13,808 nt of DNA, from UHGV virus genome UHGV-0313909; one strand, written 5' to 3'. The stretch is from a virus. A program made the position numbers and the translations under genes. The notes under the pieces are model-generated. The model was not told where the DNA came from and ran no database searches. It worked only from the letters and a program-made list of their open reading frames with translations. The stretch's first letter is position 1. Each line of letters opens with the position of its first letter. Below are positions 1 to 12,266 of the stretch, piece after piece.

Positions 1-192
1 TTAGTTAATCAGGCCAACGAATACATGAACAGTAAACAATGGCCTGGTAAAGCGGCGATTGGTCGTCTGAAAGGTGAGGAACTGGCGCAATATAATTTGT
101 GGCTGGATTATCTGGACGCACTGGAACTGGTCGATACTTCCAGTGCGCCAGATATTGAATGGCCTACGCCTCCGGCAGTTCAGGCCAGATGA
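1..192 (+). CDS. tfa: Tail fibre assembly protein (Tfa), C-terminal 63 codons; 5' end lies left of the window
   Basis: Frame 1 of + strand is open from nt 1 to TGA at 190-192 and translates to LVNQANEYMNSKQWPGKAAIGRLKGEELAQYNLWLDYLDALELVDTSSAPDIEWPTPPAVQAR. Its C-terminus parallels that of the complete minus-strand Tfa at 164-766 (LDYIDAV..TDTSTAPDVIWPELPEA). Absent from the supplied ORF track because it has no in-window start of sufficient length. Confidence 0.6.
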   Translation, partial: LVNQANEYMNSKQWPGKAAIGRLKGEELAQYNLWLDYLDALELVDTSSAPDIEWPTPPAVQAR

Positions 193-766
193 CATCCGGC
201 GCGGTGCTGGTATCTGTTGCCGTCACCGCGTCAATGTAATCCAGCACAGCGTTAAGTCTGGTTGTTTCTGCCTGCGTCGGTTTACGTCCGGCCTGCAATT
301 TCAGTTGAATCAGACTGATGGAAGCCATTGCTGCATCAATCAGTGACTGGCGCTGTGCTTCTGCCGCTTCTACTGCGGCACCGTATTGTGCCTCAGTATC
401 TGTCACCCATTTTTCACCATCCCATTTATCGTATGGCGTTAACGGGGCGATAGTGGTTGTATTTTCGGGATAGTCGCCTAGTGCTGTGATTTCTTTGGCA
501 TCTCCCGTTTCGGTGTTATAGACTATTTCACCTCGATGGTCTGACACATATTCCCATGATTTTAAATCCACAGAACGGAAAATTGTATAACCAGCCTTAT
601 ATGTACCAGGAGCGTCTAAACAGGAATATGCAGGGATACCGACACCAATGGCAAGATATTCATTTGAAGTGGAAATATATTCCCGTGTTTCGCCATCATA
701 GTTATAGACGGTAATATTTCCCGCCTTTGTAGCAATAAACTCGCTATTTAATACAGCGTTATCCAT
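164..766 (-). CDS. tfa: Tail fibre assembly protein, alternate copy in inverted orientation (Tfa')
   Basis: 200-aa ORF; ATG at 766-764 overlaps the stop of the upstream fibre segment (TAATG on minus strand, translational coupling). MDNAVLNSEFIATKAGNITVYNYDGETREY...DVIWPELPEA is recognised from memory as the phage tail fibre assembly chaperone family (Mu U/U', P2 G, e14 TfaE-like). Confidence 0.8.
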   Translation of the reverse strand: MDNAVLNSEFIATKAGNITVYNYDGETREYISTSNEYLAIGVGIPAYSCLDAPGTYKAGYTIFRSVDLKSWEYVSDHRGEIVYNTETGDAKEITALGDYPENTTTIAPLTPYDKWDGEKWVTDTEAQYGAAVEAAEAQRQSLIDAAMASISLIQLKLQAGRKPTQAETTRLNAVLDYIDAVTATDTSTAPDVIWPELPEA

Positions 767-1266
767 TATGCAGCCCTCACGATATAGTTAAATGCAATAT
801 TCCGTGGGCGAGTATCGGCAGGAACGACATACATTTCACCAATTGCCCGCTCATTAGAGTTGTTCAGCAATAGGCTTGAGCCATTACTGTCATGACCCGT
901 AATTAAGATATCATTGGACAAAATAAGTGAGCCCGTACCTGCAGGAATACCATAAATTCCCATATCAAATTTAATGTAACCAACACGCGCGCTCTGTGCA
1001 GACATAACGCTGCGACCAGTATCTACTGAACGACCGTCATCCCAGCCACGAATAAACTCACCGCGTAAATCAGGCAATTTATTTGTCGGGTAGGCCTTTG
1101 CCAGTTCCGGGTATTCTTCAGCAGAAAAAGCCGCACCATTGCATTTCAGCCAGCCTGTTGGCGGAGTGGCTGAAGGCCACGGAACAGGCACACCAACGGG
1201 TAATGCCGAACCTTCTCCCAAACCAACGTTTAAGAAAATGCAGAGGTAACAGCTAACTGGCATCAT
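766..1266 (-). CDS. Tail fibre C-terminal variable segment, alternate (Sv'-like); silent in this orientation
   Basis: ORF with tail-fibre C-terminal character (PTGWLKCNGAAFSAEEYPELAKAYP, Gly/Ser/Asn-rich distal part), directly followed by tfa'. The crossover site at 1213-1238 lies in its 5' end. GGAG abuts the ATG with no spacer, so independent translation is unlikely; expression is expected only after inversion fuses it to the constant 5' part of the fibre gene outside the window. Confidence 0.7.
   Translation of the reverse strand: MMPVSCYLCIFLNVGLGEGSALPVGVPVPWPSATPPTGWLKCNGAAFSAEEYPELAKAYPTNKLPDLRGEFIRGWDDGRSVDTGRSVMSAQSARVGYIKFDMGIYGIPAGTGSLILSNDILITGHDSNGSSLLLNNSNERAIGEMYVVPADTRPRNIAFNYIVRAA
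1213..1238. other. Invertase crossover site (hix/gix/cix/pix-like), right boundary of invertible segment
   Basis: TTCTCCCAAACC-AA-CGTTTAAGAAAA has the 12-2-12 architecture and AAACC/GGTTT-type half-sites of Hin/Gin recombination sites (compare hixL TTCTTGAAAACCAAGGTTTTTGATAA, from memory). It lies 55 bp upstream of the invertase ATG and inside the 5' end of the alternate fibre segment, as gixR does relative to gin in Mu. Confidence 0.55.
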
Positions 1267-1293
1267 CTCCGGTTTTTATTCAGGGGGATGATC

Positions 1294-1860
1294 ATGCTTA
1301 TTGGCTATGTACGCGTGTCAACAAATGACCAGAACACCGATTTGCAACGTAATGCACTGAACTGCGCGGGATGTGAGCGGATTTTTGAGGACAAAATCAG
1401 TGGCACTAAGTCCGACAGACCGGGGCTGAAAAAACTACTCAGGACACTATCGGCAGGAGACACGCTGGTTGTCTGGAAGCTGGACAGGTTGGGGCGCAGT
1501 ATGCGGCATCTTGTTACGCTGATAGAAGAGTTGCGCCAGCGTGGTGTGAATTTCAGAAGCCTGACTGACAGTATTGATACCAGTACCCCAATGGGCCGTT
1601 TCTTTTTTCATGTCATGGGTGCCCTGGCTGAAATGGAACGCGAACTGATAGTTGAACGTACCAGGGCAGGGCTGGCTGCAGCTCGTGCCAAAGGCAGAGT
1701 AGGTGGATGCCGTCCTAAGTTGACCACCGAACAGTGGGCACAGATTGGGCGTTTACTCGAGGCCGGAGAATCAAGACAGCGTATTGCACTGATTTTTGAT
1801 GTAGGCGTTTCTACCATTTATAGAAAATTTCCGGCAAATAAGATCAATGAATCCCCCTGA
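1294..1860 (+). CDS. Site-specific DNA invertase, serine recombinase (Gin/Hin/Cin/Pin family)
   Basis: MLIGYVRVSTNDQNTDLQRNAL...DTLVVWKLDRLGRS...FRSLTDSIDTSTPMGRFFFHVMGALAEMERELIVERT... is the canonical resolvase/invertase catalytic domain with the active-site Ser in YVRVST and a C-terminal HTH (GVSTIYRKF). Start placed at the ATG of MLIGY (1294) because GGGGG at 1284-1288 gives correct SD spacing; the track's start at 1288 is 6 nt upstream. Confidence 0.9.
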   Translation: MLIGYVRVSTNDQNTDLQRNALNCAGCERIFEDKISGTKSDRPGLKKLLRTLSAGDTLVVWKLDRLGRSMRHLVTLIEELRQRGVNFRSLTDSIDTSTPMGRFFFHVMGALAEMERELIVERTRAGLAAARAKGRVGGCRPKLTTEQWAQIGRLLEAGESRQRIALIFDVGVSTIYRKFPANKINESP

Positions 1861-4191: not shown

Positions 4192-7100
4192 TAACAACCT
4201 GCGTCTGCAGGTCATTCTTAATGCGGTTGACAAGCTCACCCGCCCATTTCGATCTGCGCAGGCCAGTTCAAGAGAACTGGCTGCTGCTGTCAAAAAATCC
4301 CGCGATGCAATAAAGCAGCTTGATCAGGCCGGGAGCAGTCTGGACAGCTTCCGAAAGCTGCAGGCAGAAAATCAGAAATTAGGCGACAGGCTGAACTATG
4401 CCCGCCAGCGTGCAAATTTGCTCAGTCAGGAACTGGGAGCGATGGGGCCGCCTTCGCAACGTCAGGTTGTTGCTTTGGGCCGTCAACGGCTGGCTGTTCA
4501 GCGCCTGGAAGAACGCCAGAAAAAGCTGCAGCAGCAGACGGCGCTTGTGCGTGCTGAACTGTACCGGGCGGGAATTTCTGCGAAAGACGATGCGGGAGCA
4601 ACTGCCCGTTTAGCCCGTGAAACATCACGTTATAACCAGGAACTTTCGAAACAGGAGGCGCGGCTGAAGCGACTGGGGGAAGCTCAGCGCAGGATGAATG
4701 CAGCGCGTGCCAGTTATGCCCGTTCGCTGGAGGTGCGTGATCGTATTGCAGGTGCCGGAGCCACCACCACGGCTGCAGGGCTGGCAATGGGCGCACCAGT
4801 GATGGCGGCAGTAAAAAGCTATACCAGCATGGAAGATGCCATGAAAGGTGTGGCAAAGCAGGTCAATGGCCTGCGTGACGATAATGGCAACCGCACTGCA
4901 CGTTTTTATGAAATGCAGGATGCCATCAAGGCTGCCAGCGAACAGTTGCCGATGGAAAACGGTGCGGTGGACTTCGCTGCACTGGTTGAAGGTGGGGCGC
5001 GCATGAACGTCGCAAACCCTGACGACAGCTGGGAAGACCAGAAACGTGACCTGCTGGCCTTCGCCAGTACGGCAGCAAAGGCGGCAACAGCCTTTGAGCT
5101 GCCAGCGGATGAACTGTCAGAAAGTCTGGGGAAAATCGCCCAGCTCTACAAAATACCTACCCGCAATATTGAACAGCTCGGCGATGCGCTGAACTATCTG
5201 GATGATAACGCCATGTCGAAAGGGGCGGACATCATTGATGTGATGCAACGTCTGGGCGGTGTGGCTGACCGTCTGGATTATCGTAAAGCGGCGGCGCTGG
5301 GTTCCACCTTCCTGACACTGGGCGCTGCGCCGGAGGTTGCAGCCAGTGCAGCAAACGCGATGGTGCGTGAATTGTCCATTGCCACCATGCAAAGCAAGAG
5401 TTTCTTTGAAGGAATGAATCTGCTGAAACTCAATCCTGAAGTGATTGAAAAGCAGATGACGAAGGATGCGATGGGAACTATCCAGCGCGTACTGGAGAAG
5501 GTGAACGCACTGCCGCAGGATAAACGTCTGTCTGCCATGACCATGTTGTTTGGTAAAGAGTTTGGCGATGACGCGGCGAAACTGGCAAACAACCTGCCGG
5601 AACTGCAGCGCCAGCTAAAACTGACAGCGGGCAATGATGCGCTCGGCTCCATGCAGAAAGAATCCGACATTAACAAGGACTCACTTTCTGCGCAGTGGTT
5701 GCTGGTCAAAACCGGAGCGCAGAACACCTTCAGCAGCCTGGGCGAAACGCTGCGCCAGCCGCTGATGGATATTCTGTACACGGTGAAAAACATCACGGGG
5801 GCGTTGCGCCGCTGGGTGGAAGCTAACCCGGAACTGACAGGCACACTGATGAAAGTAGCCGCTGTGGTGGCTGCGGTTACCGTAGGCCTCGGCACCTTAG
5901 CGGTGGCGCTGGCTGCAGTGCTGGGGCCGCTGGCAGTGATCCGTCTGGGATTCTCTGTGCTGGGTATCAAAACGTTACCTTCCGTTACGGCAGCAGTAAC
6001 TCGAACCAGCAGCGCGTTGTCCTGGCTGGCTGGCGCACCACTGGCACTGCTGCGACGCGGGCTTGCTTCATCGGGCAACGCCGCAGGTTTACTTACTGCG
6101 CCGTTGTCGTCTTTGCGCCGCACGGCATCACTGACGGGAAATGTCCTGAAAACTGTAGCAGGTGCGCCGGTTGCACTTTTGCGGTCTGGATTATCCGGTT
6201 TACGTGCTGTTGCTGTGATGTTTATGAATCCTTTGGCGGTACTGCGCGGTGGACTGGTCGCCGCAGGCACGGTGCTGCGAGTACTGGCATCTGGTCCACT
6301 GGCGATGCTGCGCGTTGCCCTGTATGCCGTATCTGGTCTGTTAGGTGCTCTGCTCAGTCCGATAGGTCTTGTGGTTACTGCACTGGCGGGCGTGGCGCTG
6401 GTTGTCTGGAAATACTGGCAACCCATCACCGCATTTCTTGGTGGCGTGGTGGAAGGATTCAAAGCGGCGGCAGGTCCCGTCAGTGCAGCATTCGAACCGC
6501 TTAAGCCCGTGTTCCAGTGGATTGGCGACAAAGTACAGGCGCTGTGGGGCTGGTTTACTGATCTGCTGACGCCCGTTAAGTCGACCTCTGCCGAACTGCA
6601 GAGTGCAGCGGCAATGGGGCGGCGATTCGGAGAGGCACTGGCGGAAGGGCTGAATATGGTCATGCATCCGCTGGACTCCCTGAAATCCGGCGTTTCCTGG
6701 TTGCTGGAGAAACTTGGCATTGTCAGTAAAGAGGCCGCAAAGGCAAAACTGCCGGAAAGCGTGACGCGTCAGCAACCTGCGACGGTGAATGCAGACGGTA
6801 AAGTGATGATGCCATCGGGTGGTTTTCCGTCATGGGGATATGGTTTTGCGGGGATGTATGACAGCGGCGGGTATATCCCGCGCGGGCAGTTTGGCATCGT
6901 CGGTGAAAACGGGCCGGAAATTGTTAACGGCCCGGCAAATGTAACCAGCCGGAGAAATACAGCTGCACTGGCTGCCGTTGTCGCCGGAATGATGGGCGTT
7001 GCTGCCGCGCCAGCAGAGCTTCCACCGTTGCACCCTTTGGCACTTCCCGCGAAAGGCGGTGAAGCGATGGTGAGTCGCGCAGCCACTGTGCCGCTCGTTC

Positions 7101-7261: not shown

Positions 7262-7743
7262 TGATGGTGCTGGGATTGTACGTGTTTATGCTGCGCACCG
7301 TTCCGTATGAGGAACTGCAGTATCAACGCAGCTGGCGACATGCGGCAAACAGCCGGGTTAACCGACGCCCGTCAACGCAGTTTCTGGGACCGGATAACGA
7401 CATGCTGACGCTTTCTGGCGTTCTTATGCCGGAGATAACAGGCGGCAGGCTGTCGTTGCTGGCACTGGAGCAGATGGCAGAACAGGGGAAAGCATGGCCC
7501 CTGATTGAAGGCAGCGGCACGATTTACGGCATGTATGTGATTGAGGGACTGAATCAGACTAAAACGGAGTTTTTCCGCGACGGTATGCCGCGCCGGATTG
7601 AGTTCACCCTGTCGCTCAAACGAGTGGATGAATCCCTGTCCGATATGTTCGGTGATCTCAGTGCGCAACTGAATAATCTGCAGGAAACGGCAACATCTGC
7701 TTTAAGCGATATCAGTAAAACGGTGGGAGGGCTGCTGTCGTGA
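7258..7743 (+). CDS. U: Tail protein U (P2 gpU family)
   Basis: 161-aa ORF whose ATG overlaps the T stop (ATGA); order T-U-D as in P2/186. Confidence 0.8.
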   Translation: MMMVLGLYVFMLRTVPYEELQYQRSWRHAANSRVNRRPSTQFLGPDNDMLTLSGVLMPEITGGRLSLLALEQMAEQGKAWPLIEGSGTIYGMYVIEGLNQTKTEFFRDGMPRRIEFTLSLKRVDESLSDMFGDLSAQLNNLQETATSALSDISKTVGGLLS

Positions 7744-8840
7744 ATTTCAGCTCTGAACTGCTTAACAAGGGCAACAAAACTCCCGCATTCAGCATCAGTA
7801 TTGAGGGCAGGGATATCACTACTGTGCTGGACAACCGCCTGATGGGGCTTACGCTGACGGATAACCGGGGCTTTGAAGCGGACCAGCTTGATCTGGAGCT
7901 GGACGATGCTGACGGAAAAATCGTGCTGCCGCGCCGTGGTGCGGTCATTACGCTGGCGCTGGGCTGGAAGGGGCAGCCGCTTTTCCCGAAAGGGGCATTC
8001 ACGGTGGACGAGATTGAACACACTGGCGCACCGGACCGCCTGACTATCCGGGCGCGAAGTGCTGATTTTCGGGAAACGCTGAATACCCGCCGTGAAAAGT
8101 CGTGGCACAAGACCACGGTCGGGGAAGTGGTGAAGGAAATAGCCGCGCGGCACAAACTGAAGATGGCACTGGCTAAAGACTTGTCGGATAAACCCGTGGA
8201 GCATATAGACCAGACTAATGAGAGTGACGGCAGTTTTTTGATGCGGCTGGCGCGCCAGTACGGTGCTATTGCGTCGGTGAAAAATGGCAATCTGTTATTC
8301 ATCCGGCAGGGACAGGGTAAAAGTGCCAGCGGTAAACCACTACCGGTGATCACTATCACACGTAAGGATGGCGACAGTCACCGCTTTACCCTGGCAGATC
8401 GCGGAGCCTATACGGGCGTAATTGCCAGTTGGTTGCATACCCGCGAACCCGCGAAGAAAGAAAGCACAACGGTGAAGCGTAAGCGCAGGACTAAGAATCG
8501 GAAGAAAGAGCCGGAAGCGAAGCAGGGCGATTACCTGGTGGGTACGGATGAAAACGTGCTGGTACTTAATCGCACTTATGCCAACCGGAGCAACGCTGAA
8601 CGGGCAGCGAAAATGCAGTGGGAACGCCTGCAACGCGGCGTTGCGTCATTCTCGCTACAACTGGCGGAAGGTCGGGCAGATCTCTACACGGAAATGCCAG
8701 TGAAAGTCAGTGGCTTTAAACAGCCGATAGATGATGCGGAATGGACTATTACCACCCTGACGCATACTGTCAGCCCGGATAACGGTTTTACGACCAGTCT
8801 GGAGCTTGAAGTGAAGATTGATGATTTCGAAATGGAATGA
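7740..8840 (+). CDS. D: Tail protein D (P2 gpD family)
   Basis: 366-aa ORF with GTG start overlapping the U stop (GTGA); last gene of the tail operon before ogr, as in P2/186. Confidence 0.8.
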   Translation: MNFSSELLNKGNKTPAFSISIEGRDITTVLDNRLMGLTLTDNRGFEADQLDLELDDADGKIVLPRRGAVITLALGWKGQPLFPKGAFTVDEIEHTGAPDRLTIRARSADFRETLNTRREKSWHKTTVGEVVKEIAARHKLKMALAKDLSDKPVEHIDQTNESDGSFLMRLARQYGAIASVKNGNLLFIRQGQGKSASGKPLPVITITRKDGDSHRFTLADRGAYTGVIASWLHTREPAKKESTTVKRKRRTKNRKKEPEAKQGDYLVGTDENVLVLNRTYANRSNAERAAKMQWERLQRGVASFSLQLAEGRADLYTEMPVKVSGFKQPIDDAEWTITTLTHTVSPDNGFTTSLELEVKIDDFEME

Positions 8841-8930: not shown

Positions 8931-9149
8931 ATGATGATTTGCCCACTGTGTGGAAGTGCCGCCCATACTCGCAGCAGTTTTCAGGTATCTTCATTGACCA
9001 AAGAGCGTTACAACCAGTGCCAGAACATTAACTGCAGCCATACTTTTGTTACCCATGAAACTTTTGTTCGTTCGATTGCAACGCCAAAAGAGTCAAATCC
9101 GGTTCAGCCGCATCCAATGAAATCAGGACAGGTGGCGCTCTCTCTTTGA
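8931..9149 (+). CDS. ogr: Ogr/Delta-family zinc-finger late transcription activator (186 B / P2 Ogr)
   Basis: MMICPLCGSAAHTRSSFQVSSLTKERYNQCQNINCSHTFVTHETF carries the C-x2-C...C-x4-C zinc-finger pattern of Ogr. Start moved to 8931 (GGGGAG SD upstream), giving 72 aa, the size of P2 Ogr. Confidence 0.85.
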   Translation: MMICPLCGSAAHTRSSFQVSSLTKERYNQCQNINCSHTFVTHETFVRSIATPKESNPVQPHPMKSGQVALSL

Positions 9150-9176
9150 CTCTGCCGCCATTTTTTCACCATTGCT

Positions 9177-9206
9177 AAAAACAGTGATTCTAAAAATCAT
9201 TGTTTT
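9177..9206. terminator. Candidate bidirectional hairpin between convergent ogr and the downstream minus-strand gene
   Basis: Imperfect inverted repeat AAAAACAGTGATT-cta-AAAATCATTGTTTT with A-run on one side and T-run on the other, in the 68-bp gap between two convergent stops. The stem is AT-rich, so predicted stability is low. Confidence 0.25.
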
Positions 9207-9217
9207 CGAATAAGTGC

Positions 9218-9721
9218 CTAGCATCCGATAAGGTCGTTTGCTTCAAACTTTGGCAAATGATACTCATTTGCCAAATGTTCGTTATCTTTGTTATTTTTTA
9301 AATATTTGTATTTTAATGTATTTTTATCTTCATTGTATGATAATAAAGCTTCCCCGATAGGAACATCACGCCACCCTATTTGAATGCAAAGAAGGATAGT
9401 GACCTGCCCTTTATGGTTTAGCTTACCCGAGAATGTAAAGGTGCATTTCTCTTCATCAAGGCTTGTTGATGAACAGTTAGTGATAGTCCCTCCCAAATTG
9501 CCGACGACATCTGATGACTCAATTTTTATGCTTATTATATTCTCATTATGGTTGCGAATATCACCAACATTGTTCCAGTTTTTTGAGACTAGAAGCTCAA
9601 TAATTCTTTTTTTCTTAAGGCGTTTTACTTCCTTTGCCTGTGGTGAGTATAAGAGGTATGCGGGTATGCCTGCTACAATCGTTGCTACAATTGCCAGCAC
9701 AGCTAATATAATGGTAACCAT
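9218..9721 (-). CDS. Hypothetical membrane-anchored protein, AT-rich cargo (moron) gene
   Basis: 167-aa ORF from ATG 9721-9719 with AAGGA SD 6 nt upstream. N-terminal hydrophobic helix followed by KEVKRLKKKR, then a Lys/Asn-rich ~140-aa domain. The track's 212-aa version starts at a TTG with no RBS and is discounted; ATG at 9748 is an alternative start. Confidence 0.55.
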   Translation of the reverse strand: MVTIILAVLAIVATIVAGIPAYLLYSPQAKEVKRLKKKRIIELLVSKNWNNVGDIRNHNENIISIKIESSDVVGNLGGTITNCSSTSLDEEKCTFTFSGKLNHKGQVTILLCIQIGWRDVPIGEALLSYNEDKNTLKYKYLKNNKDNEHLANEYHLPKFEANDLIGC

Positions 9722-9788
9722 CTGAAGTCCTTGTTCTTCTGCCGCCATTTTGCCGCCAAAGATAAGTAAAGTAGTTTCTAACTTATTG

Positions 9789-9818
9789 ATTATGGAATGG
9801 AAGAATAGCAGGCAACAA
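9789..9818 (-). promoter_or_regulatory. Candidate sigma70 promoter for the cargo gene
   Basis: On the minus strand: TTGTTG (9818-9813), 18-nt spacer, CATAAT (9794-9789); about 60 nt upstream of the ATG at 9721. Confidence 0.3.
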
Positions 9819-9901
9819 AAAACCCATTTATGTAAACGGGTTAATGAAAACAACAAGTTAGATTAAAAACAATAAGTTAGGTTGGTGGTCAGTGGTGGTT
9901 A

Positions 9902-10954
9902 TTACGGGGTAATGCCAACCGCTGCCGCCACTTTGTCGCCACTTGGCAGCGTTGCCAGAGGATTGAAACGGAGCGCCGTTTCCAGATGATCCGGTGCCAG
10001 ATGTGCGTAACGCATAGTCATTTTTATATCGTGGTGTCCGAGAATTTTTTGTAAGGCCAGAATGTTTCCACCCGACATCATGAAGTGCGCCGCAAACGTA
10101 TGGCGCAGAACGTGTGTGAGTTGACCGCGAGGGAGCACGATAGACGTTTTTTCCATCACGGATAAAAATTGAAAATAGCAGTCTGTGAAGAAATTGAACC
10201 CATCAAGCGCCATGATCTCTTCGTAAAGCTCTTTACTGATAGGGATACTTCTGTTTTTCTTCCCCTTCGTTCTTACAAAGGTAATTCGGTATTTGGTCAC
10301 CTGTGAACGAGTAAGATTTACGGCTTCTCGCCAGCGTGCGCCTGTGCTTAAGCATATCTTAACTACCAGTGCTAGAATTGGGTCCTGACGTTTGCAATCA
10401 GCCAGTAATTCAACAATCTGCTCATGGGTAAGCCATGCCATCTCTTTTTCTGCGATGGTGAATTTTCGCATGTTCTCCAGTGGGTTCGGATACGACCATT
10501 CGCCCAGACGGGATAGTTCGCTAAAAACACTACTTAGATAGCTTTGCTCCAGGTTAATGGTGACCGGGCTTGCTCCTTTCTTCCATTTCTCGCTGAAGTA
10601 GATCTCGCCTGTCAGGCGTTTATCTCGATAGTGGGCAAACATTTTAGAGGTGAGATCGGTTGCAAGAGGATTGCCCAGAGCGCCAACCATCAGCAGCAAT
10701 TTGTCATAGACATGCTGCCCAGCAGTCAGAGATTTACCATGTAGTTTGAACCATAGCTCAACCACGTCTTTCAGGGTTCGACGATCCACTGATTCGCCCA
10801 GCCATGGCTTTGATTCGGTTTCTTCCATAGTGTGACGCTCAAAAGCCAGAGCTTCGCCTTTGGTGGCGAATTGTTTACGCACACGACGCCCACTTCGTCC
10901 GGCGGGGTAACATTCGCAAAGCCATTTCCCTGTGGTGAGTTTTCGTACTGCCAT
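9902..10954 (-). CDS. int: Tyrosine integrase (P2/186 Int family)
   Basis: MAVRKLTTGKWLCECYPAGRSGRRVRKQFATKGEALAFERHT... parallels the P2 Int N-terminus (recalled); C-terminal catalytic region has ARWREA...HVLRHTFAAHFMMSGGNILALQKILGHHDIKMTMRYAHL with the R..H-x-x-R..Y signature. Start placed at the ATG of MAVRK (10954); the track's 402-aa version extends into AT-rich upstream sequence. Confidence 0.9.
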   Translation of the reverse strand: MAVRKLTTGKWLCECYPAGRSGRRVRKQFATKGEALAFERHTMEETESKPWLGESVDRRTLKDVVELWFKLHGKSLTAGQHVYDKLLLMVGALGNPLATDLTSKMFAHYRDKRLTGEIYFSEKWKKGASPVTINLEQSYLSSVFSELSRLGEWSYPNPLENMRKFTIAEKEMAWLTHEQIVELLADCKRQDPILALVVKICLSTGARWREAVNLTRSQVTKYRITFVRTKGKKNRSIPISKELYEEIMALDGFNFFTDCYFQFLSVMEKTSIVLPRGQLTHVLRHTFAAHFMMSGGNILALQKILGHHDIKMTMRYAHLAPDHLETALRFNPLATLPSGDKVAAAVGITP

Positions 10955-11142
10955 AAAAAATGCCCTCCAGTAGAGAGCATTTTTACTGTATGTATAACCA
11001 GTGTCAATGTATGAAATCCTACGACCATACATCTCACTGAAGCCATAATGAAGTTGGCTATTCTTTTTGCTATGTGAGCATGTAACTTTTGCGGTTAACC
11101 TGCGGCTCATTTTTATTTTAGACGCAGATATAAAAGCAAAAG

Positions 11143-11334
11143 TTATCGTGAGTTTTTAGTACAGATTTTTTTGGATTTACTAATAGTTCCATCATTGCAA
11201 ACGAATTTGCCATCTGAGGTACAGTGAGAAACACCTCCCTTTTTCCCTGAGCAGGGATAATTTCTAGCATAGGTAGTTAGTGGGTTTAATAACAAAGAAC
11301 ATGACAAAACCACAAAAAATACCTTACCAAGCAT
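11143..11334 (-). CDS. Small secreted cysteine-rich basic peptide (hypothetical)
   Basis: 63-aa ORF; strong SD GGGAGGA 5 nt before the ATG; starts 15 nt after the cI stop, so co-transcribed with cI. Predicted signal peptide [23 protein letters not shown]; mature ~40 aa with 4 Cys and many Lys. AT-rich. Confidence 0.5.
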
Positions 11335-11349
11335 AGTTTCCTCCCGGTA

Positions 11350-11919
11350 CTATTTAACATACTTGACTGTTAAACTTATAATTTTACCAATTATTTCAAT
11401 GTCTTCTATCTTACATTCGAAGGCTCTGTTTCCACCCTCGACGAAGATTCTTCCACCGGGTAAACGAGTAATGTCACGGATCGTTACTTCGCCATCAATA
11501 CTTATTACCCATTTACCATCACGTATATCATCAAATTCTTTATCACAAATAAATTCAGAATTGTTATCTGTGATGACAAAAGGTTTTTTAAACGTAGAGG
11601 GTAGAAATCCCTTATCAAAAATATAAAAACCGTCTTCACGCAAGGCACCATCAGATAATACATATTTAGCAACTTCCATAGTATTTGTATTACCTGAAGT
11701 TTGCTTTGAACCATGTCCGGTTGTGAGCCAATTAAGCGAGGTGCCCGTTTCAAGGGCGCACTGGATTACCCATTCTGCTGGGAATGAGTCACGCATGTAG
11801 CGTGTGGCGAGTGTACTTTTAGAGATTCCTAAATGATCGCACAACGCCTGTCGAGTTTTGAATCCATAAGCTTCTACCATGCGCTCTATAGCGCCTCGTC
11901 CGCCTTTCTCCAAATTCAT
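11350..11919 (-). CDS. cI: CI-type immunity repressor (phage 186 CI-like)
   Basis: 189 aa; N-terminal HTH region (AYGFKTRQALCDHLGISKSTLATRYMR) and C-terminal domain; size and position (upstream of int, divergent from apl/cII) as in 186. Start placed at ATG 11919 with GGAG SD rather than the track's GTG at 11925. Confidence 0.8.
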   Translation of the reverse strand: MNLEKGGRGAIERMVEAYGFKTRQALCDHLGISKSTLATRYMRDSFPAEWVIQCALETGTSLNWLTTGHGSKQTSGNTNTMEVAKYVLSDGALREDGFYIFDKGFLPSTFKKPFVITDNNSEFICDKEFDDIRDGKWVISIDGEVTIRDITRLPGGRIFVEGGNRAFECKIEDIEIIGKIISLTVKYVK

Positions 11920-11943
11920 GGTCACTCCAAGTGAACTTTTATC

Positions 11944-12044: not shown

Positions 12045-12266
12045 ATGAGACCTAACATTTCAATCACTCTTACCACGCCTCATGTGACTATTGAGCGCTA
12101 TAGCGAGCTGACAGGGCTGTCCATCGATACCATCAATGACATGTTGGCTGACGGACGCCTTATCCGTCACCGTTTGCGCAAAGATAAAAAACGCGAAAAA
12201 GTGATGATCAACATAGCAGCCATGACCGTTGATGCGCTTTCAGAATGCAATCTAAACCTTAATTAG
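12045..12266 (+). CDS. apl: Apl/Cox-like small HTH protein (excisionase and switch regulator)
   Basis: 73-aa ORF with GAGGA SD; first gene of the rightward operon opposite cI; HTH-like segment [21 protein letters not shown]; position equals 186 apl / P2 cox. Confidence 0.65.

Follow-up and report, generated by a model that had tools for sequence, protein, structure and literature searches.

Why should a P2-like temperate phage carry a small AT-rich gene between its late activator gene ogr and its integrase gene int? The question is raised by the UHGV virus genome UHGV-0313909, a stretch of 13,808 nucleotides (hereafter the window). In this window, a coding sequence (CDS) of 167 aa occupies positions 9218-9721 of the minus strand, with a TAG stop codon at 9218-9220; it is delimited by its open reading frame (ORF), by hydropathy, by composition and by a family alignment. 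An earlier examination of the letters alone (the sequence-only reading) had taken it for foreign cargo encoding a membrane-anchored protein. Our results indicate that this is a real, constrained and optional accessory gene (a "moron") of a P2-like phage that integrates at the small RNA (sRNA) gene rybB.

The ORF, its start codon and its composition

The stop-to-stop open frame extends over 9218-9856 of the minus strand (212-214 codons) in DNA of 38% GC. None of 2000 shuffles of the region 9150-9901 matched that length (mean 70, maximum 199), so the claim that a real ORF lies between ogr and int was borne out. The existence of relatives at 25-43% identity confirms both the coding strand and the frame. 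A plus-strand ORF at 9384-9725 was also considered as a gene and ruled out, because conservation follows the minus-strand frame.

A Shine-Dalgarno sequence, AAGGA (9728-9732, minus strand), lies 6 nt upstream of the ATG at 9721; the CDS has its own ribosome-binding site, as had been suggested, and this ATG is the most likely start. The RefSeq form of the protein (WP_023147539, "hypothetical protein") has 176 aa and begins at ATG 9748 (9746-9748). Since that codon lies within a putative binding site of the arm type for the integrase Int (see below), 9721 is preferred. The start at 9721 is further favoured by an orthologue of 42% identity, as its annotated N-terminus, MATKWRQ, is the arm site in translation. 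No literature match to the protein accession was found.

The GC content of the CDS is 0.367, compared to 0.542 for D, 0.466 for ogr, 0.484 for int and 0.502 for the whole window. The genes ogr, int, D, T and FI range from 0.47 to 0.57, which agrees with the initial impression that the CDS is more AT-rich than its flanks. Its base composition is thus distinct from that of the surrounding phage genes, as is typical of accessory genes. The same trend was seen in five homologous loci, where homologues have a GC content of 0.36-0.43 within loci of 0.375-0.53.

A small family with two genomic layouts

A word-indexed search of 5.8 billion proteins recovered the E. coli cluster alone. An exhaustive HMMER search of 1.84 billion cluster representatives yielded eight relatives with 25-43% identity, and two profile rounds extended the family to about 20 clusters, the additions being hypothetical proteins. 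All family clusters consist of hypothetical proteins without Pfam domains, and the named members come from Salmonella, Enterobacter, Siccibacter and E. coli. This is a small, previously unannotated family, mainly of P2/HP1-like phages of Enterobacterales. A transmembrane (TM) helix, a basic cluster, a WxN(E/x)GD motif and a barrel pattern are conserved across the relatives. Barrel motifs common to the family are GK..KG, GWR and Y, and the closest clade adds a C-terminal LPRF..L.GC.

In every locus whose readable part includes int, the gene follows int in the same orientation on the circular phage map; what varies is the position of the attachment (att) site. In the first layout, found in Salmonella, Enterobacter, Siccibacter and metagenome lineages, the start of the gene overlaps the int stop codon or follows int by at most about 45 nt. 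Five members (P0021, P0024, P0025, P0029 and P0031) stand last or next to last in a cI-(x)-int series and overlap the stop codon of int, and P0022 begins 43 nt after int. In the case of P0021 and P0024, the att site is marked ~100 nt further on by the partial 3' end of a tRNA. In the second layout, the order is rybB, att core, 50 nt, arm sites and gene; it is present in three lineages, namely the query, P0016 (42% identity), where a convergent ogr comes after the gene, and P0017 (38%), which follows rybB in a prophage remnant. Three members lie elsewhere: P0018 and P0019 at the tail-fibre end of HP1/P2-like phages, and P0023 in an unrelated phage, near a lambda-type terminase.

In the window, and in the related loci read for 13 clusters, no nucleotide cyclase or recurrent partner was detected near the gene, which has ogr, int, rybB, host genes or tail-fibre genes as neighbours. 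In one metagenomic lineage (L107, 5531-6295), a 254-aa gene unmatched in Pfam overlaps the family member at its stop codon, giving the order cI, int, gene, 254 aa, and it may be a lineage-specific partner. In another locus (L097, ~5420-6000), about 590 nt separate rybB from the family member and contain a second set of arm-type sites. By eye, this stretch also seems to include the 3' end of ssrA (tmRNA; ...GGACGCGGGTTCAACTCCCGCCAGCTC...), which would be a remnant of the att site of another integrative element.

The gene is rare, optional and intact

The gene was found in 3 complete E. coli genomes out of 5426, while the same core and P' arm are present in 909 of them. It is also present in a single IMG/VR locus among the 73 that have an identical ogr. 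A tblastn search of 50,697 phage records gave no match to it, and it is absent from Klebsiella phages KP12 and 4LV2017. These frequencies (1/73 IMG/VR loci, 3/909 E. coli rybB prophages) are those of non-core, single-gene cargo, as had been proposed, and not those of a conserved core gene of 186-like phages. A comparison of ogr-int junctions, suggested at the outset as a way to reveal a variable slot, gave a mixed answer: the gene is indeed optional, but the junction is no general variable hotspot in this lineage. A hypervariable slot between ogr and att was accordingly rejected, 72 of the 73 loci being empty and no other cargo being seen.

At 90% identity, the protein cluster has 18 members, one sequence of which occurs on 243 contigs, all from E. 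coli. The E. coli copies are at least 99% identical, and their length differences consist mainly of one to three units of a 12-nt repeat. Over at least 243 contigs the frame is intact, the sole length variants being in-frame changes of this repeat in the TM helix. Thus copies with 1, 2 or 3 units of the IVAT-encoding repeat shift the length of the helix by steps of 4 residues. In the window, the repeat is a tandem at 9668-9691 (ATTGTAGCAACG / ATTGTAGCAGGC) encoding IVAT-IVAG. In two of the three complete genomes, the gene persists together with ogr in a heavily deleted prophage remnant; in the third (VG12A2), the tail-gene region upstream of the gene is intact.

The gene lies just outside attP

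The attP core, CAGGCAACAAAAAACCCAT, occupies 9809-9827 and is identical to the 3' end of the host rybB terminator. The same 19 nt form the annotated attR of Klebsiella phage 4LV2017, located there 72 nt after ogr. In gene-carrying E. coli lysogens, identity to the window is 100% from 9150 to exactly 9827, beyond which the DNA is that of the host. Three copies of a 20-nt element, CTGCCGCCAYTTTGYCGCCA, are present in the window, at 9152-9171 (after ogr), 9739-9758 (5' of the gene) and 9922-9941 (3' end of int). As the element is repeated on both arms with fixed spacing, we infer that these elements are tandem arm-type binding sites of Int.

The element within the 3' end of int (9922-9941) would be the P' arm-type site, CTGCCGCCACTTTGTCGCCA. 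The tandem sites next to the gene (TGGCGGCAAAATGGCGGCA, 9740-9758, minus strand; copy 2) are separated from the core by a 50-nt spacer (9759-9808, minus strand), which doubles as 5' leader and promoter region for the CDS and includes a candidate -10 element, the candidate -35 lying in the core itself. The core-to-arm distance is exactly 50 nt for copy 2 of the window, for one E. coli lysogen, for two diverged lineages and for cargo-free alleles. This constant spacing indicates that copy 2 is probably the functional P arm. The remaining element belongs to a partial P arm directly after the ogr stop codon (9151-9206; copy 1), whose homologue in cargo-free relatives is the initial ~57 nt of their P arm. 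In view of its degenerate second half-site (TTCACCA) and its position 587 nt beyond copy 2, we regard copy 1 as a relic.

In close relatives, the ogr-int interval normally holds attP alone, as the sequence-only reading had assumed: in cargo-free Klebsiella phage KP12 only 165 bp separate ogr from int, and in 72 of the 73 IMG/VR loci with identical ogr the att core lies 77 nt after the ogr stop codon. These cargo-free relatives have a single P arm. In the window both attP and cargo are there, but in a fixed order, with attP between the gene and int and the gene just outside attP.

Similarity of the window to cargo-free alleles ends ~57 nt past ogr and returns at the core. The simplest history would be the import of a module from a related phage, consisting of the gene with its own complete, diverged P arm. 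The right crossover would have occurred in the shared core or in int, and the left join would lie inside the resident P arm. Two other origins were rejected. Tandem prophages with bacterial DNA between them do not account for the 19-nt core, 50-nt spacing and arm sites, which make up a complete attP, nor for the fact that in lysogens the gene travels with the phage end; capture by aberrant excision would have left host DNA on the far side of the core, whereas the gene is found between ogr and the P arm. Separately, in E. coli CFSAN061772 (L086, 3280-4716) and FDAARGOS_1248 (L087, 3280-4715), a chromosomal ogr, a complete cargo-free attP and int are contiguous, which indicates tandem or rearranged P2-like prophages at this locus.

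Integration moves the gene behind rybB

In E. coli lysogens, the gene comes after ybjL at the right end of the prophage and converges with ogr. Directly upstream of it is the sigma-E-dependent rybB (Rfam RF00110, 103-107 bits), and the att core completes the terminator of this sRNA gene. The two share a strand; from the RybB 3' end to the start of the gene there are 65 nt for the 176-aa form and 92 nt for the 167-aa form. Because attP lies between the gene and int, integration parts the two and places the gene directly after rybB. The rybB locus is a known attachment site of P2-like/Felsduovirus prophages in E. coli (PMC3032704, PMC10121019), and the att site itself is therefore not new.

In the unintegrated phage, the gene follows int, with a hairpin terminator in between. 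This terminator-like hairpin with its T run (9821-9842, minus strand), downstream of int, has the att core as its 3' half; it mimics the rybB terminator and separates int from the CDS.

The candidate promoter, described earlier as TTGTTG-N18-CATAAT, consists of a -35 element at 9813-9818 (minus strand), 18 nt and a -10 element at 9789-9794. The letters are present as described. However, they match 8 of 12 consensus positions, and a promoter scan with a threshold of 9/12 reported no minus-strand site there; the candidate is thus not above chance. C/cI and int are co-transcribed in P2/186 lysogens. Given the weak promoter, and a gene that in most relatives overlaps the int stop codon, translationally coupled, at the end of the cI-int operon, independent transcription as described earlier is at most a possibility. 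On the opposite side of the gene, the 3' end of the CDS contains a perfect inverted repeat (9249-9275) with arms of 12 bp and a loop of 3 nt. On the plus strand, a T-rich run lies 3' of it and the whole scores as terminator-like, so that transcription arriving from the convergent ogr could end here, within the cargo gene.

The product is a predicted membrane-tethered barrel

The protein can be divided into a TM helix (aa 2-25, encoded by 9647-9718), a basic juxtamembrane helix (aa 26-44, 9590-9646) and a C-terminal part with the WNNxGD motif and a predicted eight-stranded beta-barrel (aa 45-167, 9221-9589). Residues 1-19 have a mean Kyte-Doolittle value of 2.85, and 7 of the next 20 residues are K or R. 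Hydropathy, K/R count and their conservation throughout the family agree with the original description of one N-terminal TM helix followed by a basic cluster. The cytoplasmic location proposed for the C-terminal domain is likewise predicted by the positive-inside rule across the whole family: every full-length member but P0016 has 0-1 K/R before the TM helix and 3-7 after it. In P0016, the exception is due to an extra basic N-terminus that is a translated arm site. The predicted topology is therefore N-terminus out, barrel cytoplasmic.

With an alignment of 12 sequences, AlphaFold2 gave a model with a mean predicted local distance difference test score (pLDDT) of 85.1 and a predicted template modelling score of 0.74; the single-sequence model was unusable (pLDDT 48.6). 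The former contains helices at residues 3-16 and 21-44, then eight or nine strands and one short helix, and the fold is confidently predicted as an eight-stranded up-and-down beta-barrel. Thus the statement that no motif can be recognised holds at the level of sequence, where nothing significant was found, but not at the level of the predicted fold.

Scans of the protein and of family members against Pfam, PHROGs, PADLOC and NCBIfam gave no match above threshold, and matches to GLUG, PycTM, Big_8 and HIRAN were judged to be noise-level. PADLOC models of CBASS effectors were unmatched at E <= 10 among the family members scanned. A profile search of PDB sequences returned only chance-level matches to LSm6 and OspB, and did not recover Cap15 at E <= 10. 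Foldseek gave no match at E <= 0.001 against BFVD and PDB, Cap15 being outside its top 50. Four members of the Salmonella/Enterobacter clade match PF22820 (TcaA_3rd_4th) over ~50 barrel residues; the best match is that of P0021 (E 4.1e-5, 23.9 bits), and all fall short of the gathering score, which is 27. Neither the window protein nor its closest relatives match PF22820. TcaA domains are extracellular.

Possible functions of the gene

Proteins combining a TM anchor with a nucleotide-binding barrel are membrane-disrupting defence effectors, and those of the S-2TMbeta class disrupt the inner membrane when ligand occupancy changes (PMC12657218; bioRxiv 10.64898/2026.08.10.743972). By analogy with them, we tentatively favour, with somewhat less than even confidence, a lysogen-expressed, membrane-tethered, ligand-sensing protein that excludes other phages, through exclusion or abortive infection. 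Before integration, expression in this scheme would come from cI-int read-through; after integration, it would come from the weak promoter that has the att core as its -35 and/or from read-through of the rybB terminator. The tethered barrel would bind a small ligand or a peptide, one that either arises or is lost when another phage infects the cell. This binding would then shift the oligomeric state and perturb the inner membrane, or else block an entry step at its cytoplasmic face, and the lysogen would gain exclusion or abortive-infection protection. Such an action would be analogous to that of Cap15, OptE and PanE without a dedicated cyclase, the protein sensing a ligand made elsewhere. This proposal is supported by the optional presence and foreign composition of the gene, by the conservation and predicted topology of its product, by its place in the lysogenic operon or close to att, a region known as a minor defence hotspot of P2-like prophages, and by its retention in degraded prophage remnants.

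Several observations weigh against exclusion. The candidate promoter is weak, and intrinsic terminators stand 5' of the gene in both the integrated and the unintegrated state. There is one TM helix here (aa 1-25, aa 26-44 being highly charged), whereas S-2TMbeta effectors have two. No similarity in sequence to a defence family was found: the Pfam model S_2TMBeta is unmatched at E <= 1 among the members scanned, the query has no PADLOC match, and the PycTM match of two relatives (E 0.031) is at noise level. No CD-NTase, mCpol or mDAC partner is encoded in the window or in the related loci read. Homology to PF22820, if real, would conflict with the predicted cytoplasmic location. Finally, the rarity of the gene is also compatible with a nearly neutral passenger.

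A wider proposal can be made for the family as a whole. It would stand alone, as a single-TM counterpart to the Cap15/OptE class: a one-gene, prophage-borne membrane effector whose cytoplasmic barrel senses a ligand made elsewhere, for example a nucleotide signal from host or invader or a peptide of phage origin, and whose expression is rewired by site-specific recombination (at the cI-int operon end before integration, behind rybB after). We consider this wider proposal distinctly unlikely.

The position of the gene in lysogens, 65-92 nt downstream of rybB and co-oriented with it, raises the alternative that it serves lysogenic conversion of host physiology, the barrel modulating an envelope or stress function, with its expression in lysogens tied to the sigma-E envelope-stress response by read-through from rybB. 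The recurrence of this arrangement in three diverged lineages, and the retention of the gene in prophage remnants, would fit such a role. However, most family members lie away from rybB, after int at tRNA-type att sites, so that the link with rybB is no property of the family. The rybB terminator has a 12-bp G+C-rich stem and a U run, and read-through may be small. No similarity to known host-physiology factors was found either. We regard this explanation as unlikely.

The predicted fold suggests a further alternative, which we consider very unlikely: counter-defence, the protein acting as a membrane-tethered sponge or decoy for an immune second messenger against CBASS, Panoptes or Pycsar-type systems. 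A barrel fold is common to the model and to the cyclic-dinucleotide receptors Cap15 and OptE, and the gene is phage-borne without a cyclase of its own. The sponges Tad1, Tad2 and Acb2 are soluble and expressed early in lytic growth. By contrast, this gene encodes a membrane-anchored product and is located in or after a lysogenic operon; no sequence similarity to nucleotide-binding barrels was found, and the resemblance in fold is generic.

A role in the phage's own life cycle, in which the protein would modulate integration, excision or the lysis-lysogeny decision at the membrane, is suggested by the location of the gene next to int or arm-type sites in all but three of the lineages with readable context, and by the P-arm Int sites in the 5' leader of the CDS. 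Yet more than 98% of near-identical phages with the same int and attP are without the gene, and it is thus not needed for recombination. Recombination directionality in P2 and 186 depends on Cox and Apl; a gene in the apl/cox position is already present in the window (12045-12266), and a membrane anchor would be unusual for a directionality factor. Such a role has in our opinion a slim chance.

Finally, the gene might be a nearly neutral passenger, brought in by the P-arm module swap and with no present function in E. coli. It is rare, the duplicated P-arm segment that flanks it suggests a single recombination event, and the E. coli copies, being at least 99% identical, are uninformative on selection. 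The passenger explanation is nevertheless highly improbable in view of a family conserved down to 25% identity with a confidently predicted fold, a frame intact over at least 243 contigs, and retention of the gene in remnants stripped of most phage genes.

If the exclusion proposal is correct, a cyclase-independent, single-gene member would join the membrane-anchored beta-barrel immune effectors, and P2-like phages would have a further cargo position immediately outside the P arm of attP. Whatever the function, the position of attP relative to the cargo gene sets its transcriptional context in the lysogen. One family has two layouts: int, gene, att, in which the gene belongs to the lysogenic operon, and int, att, gene, in which integration passes it to a host stress-regulated sRNA locus. 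The integration site and the accessory genes of P2 were already known, and the int-att region had been described as a minor defence hotspot of P2 (PMC13586616); the family, its predicted combination of TM helix and barrel without a cyclase, the slot outside the P arm and the att-site "swap" are new. As the protein is short, the Enterobacterales family small, and isogenic phages with and without the gene exist in nature, the hypothesis is cheap to test.

The phage and its other variable regions

The window is a P2-like temperate phage of the Peduoviridae, Felsduovirus-type, as assigned from Pfam scans and annotated relatives, and the records closest to it are Klebsiella and E. coli P2-like prophages. 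It starts with an invertible tail-fibre segment with a serine invertase (164-1860), followed by sheath, tube and tape-measure genes, then by U, D (7740-8840) and ogr. The latter (8931-9149, plus strand) encodes an Ogr/Delta zinc-finger late activator and is convergent with the 167-aa CDS. The tyrosine integrase gene int (9902-10954, minus strand) is upstream of the CDS and in the same orientation. Its start is approximate, the open frame reaching 11110 with Met codons at 11110, 11032 and 10954. A 186-type CI repressor gene (11350-11925, minus strand) comes next, and then the small gene in the apl/cox position and CII.

In the tail-fibre segment, the serine invertase (1288-1860, plus strand) has Resolvase and HTH_7 domains and is adjoined, in reverse orientation, by a fibre fragment with a tail-collar domain (766-1266, minus strand). 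A tail-fibre assembly protein (164-766, minus strand) belongs to the same module. This arrangement suggests that host range is switched in the manner of Mu Gin or P1 Cin.

A second AT-rich tract (10950-11925, GC 0.33-0.41) lies upstream of int and includes a 63-aa ORF and cI (GC 0.399). In the window, the cI-int interval contains nothing but this ORF (11143-11334), a relative's copy of which is annotated as a YdcA family protein. In related prophages, the same interval is a variable cargo slot (L092, 4125-6018; L097, 10057-11658; L106, 3420-3971; L103, 1359-2261). Its contents there include a 369-aa protein with a DUF4325 protein and a 155-aa protein, a 533-aa TPR-like protein, a bPH_3/SHOCT protein and a 300-aa protein. 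The same neighbourhood also contains a DUF4041 protein past an IS1 insertion, in a remnant without int, and a "chromosome segregation ATPase" directly upstream of int; L001 (3112-3574) and L005 (1-1340) are also among the loci behind this observation.

Comparison with known systems

Like the P2 genes old, tin and Z/fun, the gene is AT-rich, non-essential and present in some otherwise similar P2-like phages. As with these conversion genes, its expression would probably come from the prophage. To our knowledge, it has no sequence relation to old, tin or fun.

HK97 gp15, P22 SieA and T4 Imm are inner-membrane superinfection-exclusion proteins. By their description, they resemble the window protein as small inner-membrane products of single genes near the int/att end; it differs from them in its predicted cytoplasmic beta-barrel, a feature undescribed for those proteins.

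The int-att region is a minor defence hotspot of P2-like prophages, with 3% of systems (PMC13586616). In the window, however, the gene is between ogr and the P arm, at the prophage end opposite to int, and the slot between ogr and the P arm is unlisted among the P2 defence hotspots in that study. It also differs from these hotspots in being binary (this gene or nothing) instead of hypervariable.

The S-2TMbeta effectors Cap15 (CBASS), OptE (Panoptes) and PanE (PanDA) share with the modelled protein an N-terminal anchor and a small eight-stranded cytoplasmic barrel, and are also encoded on mobile elements. The match of the barrel is generic, since avidins, Gid4 and designed barrels score as well as the Cap15/OptE class or better. 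Among the features that define these effectors, the predicted structure has the minimal C-terminal eight-stranded barrel alone, and the protein is not a member of the class. By its architecture, S-2TMbeta is nevertheless its closest functional analogue.

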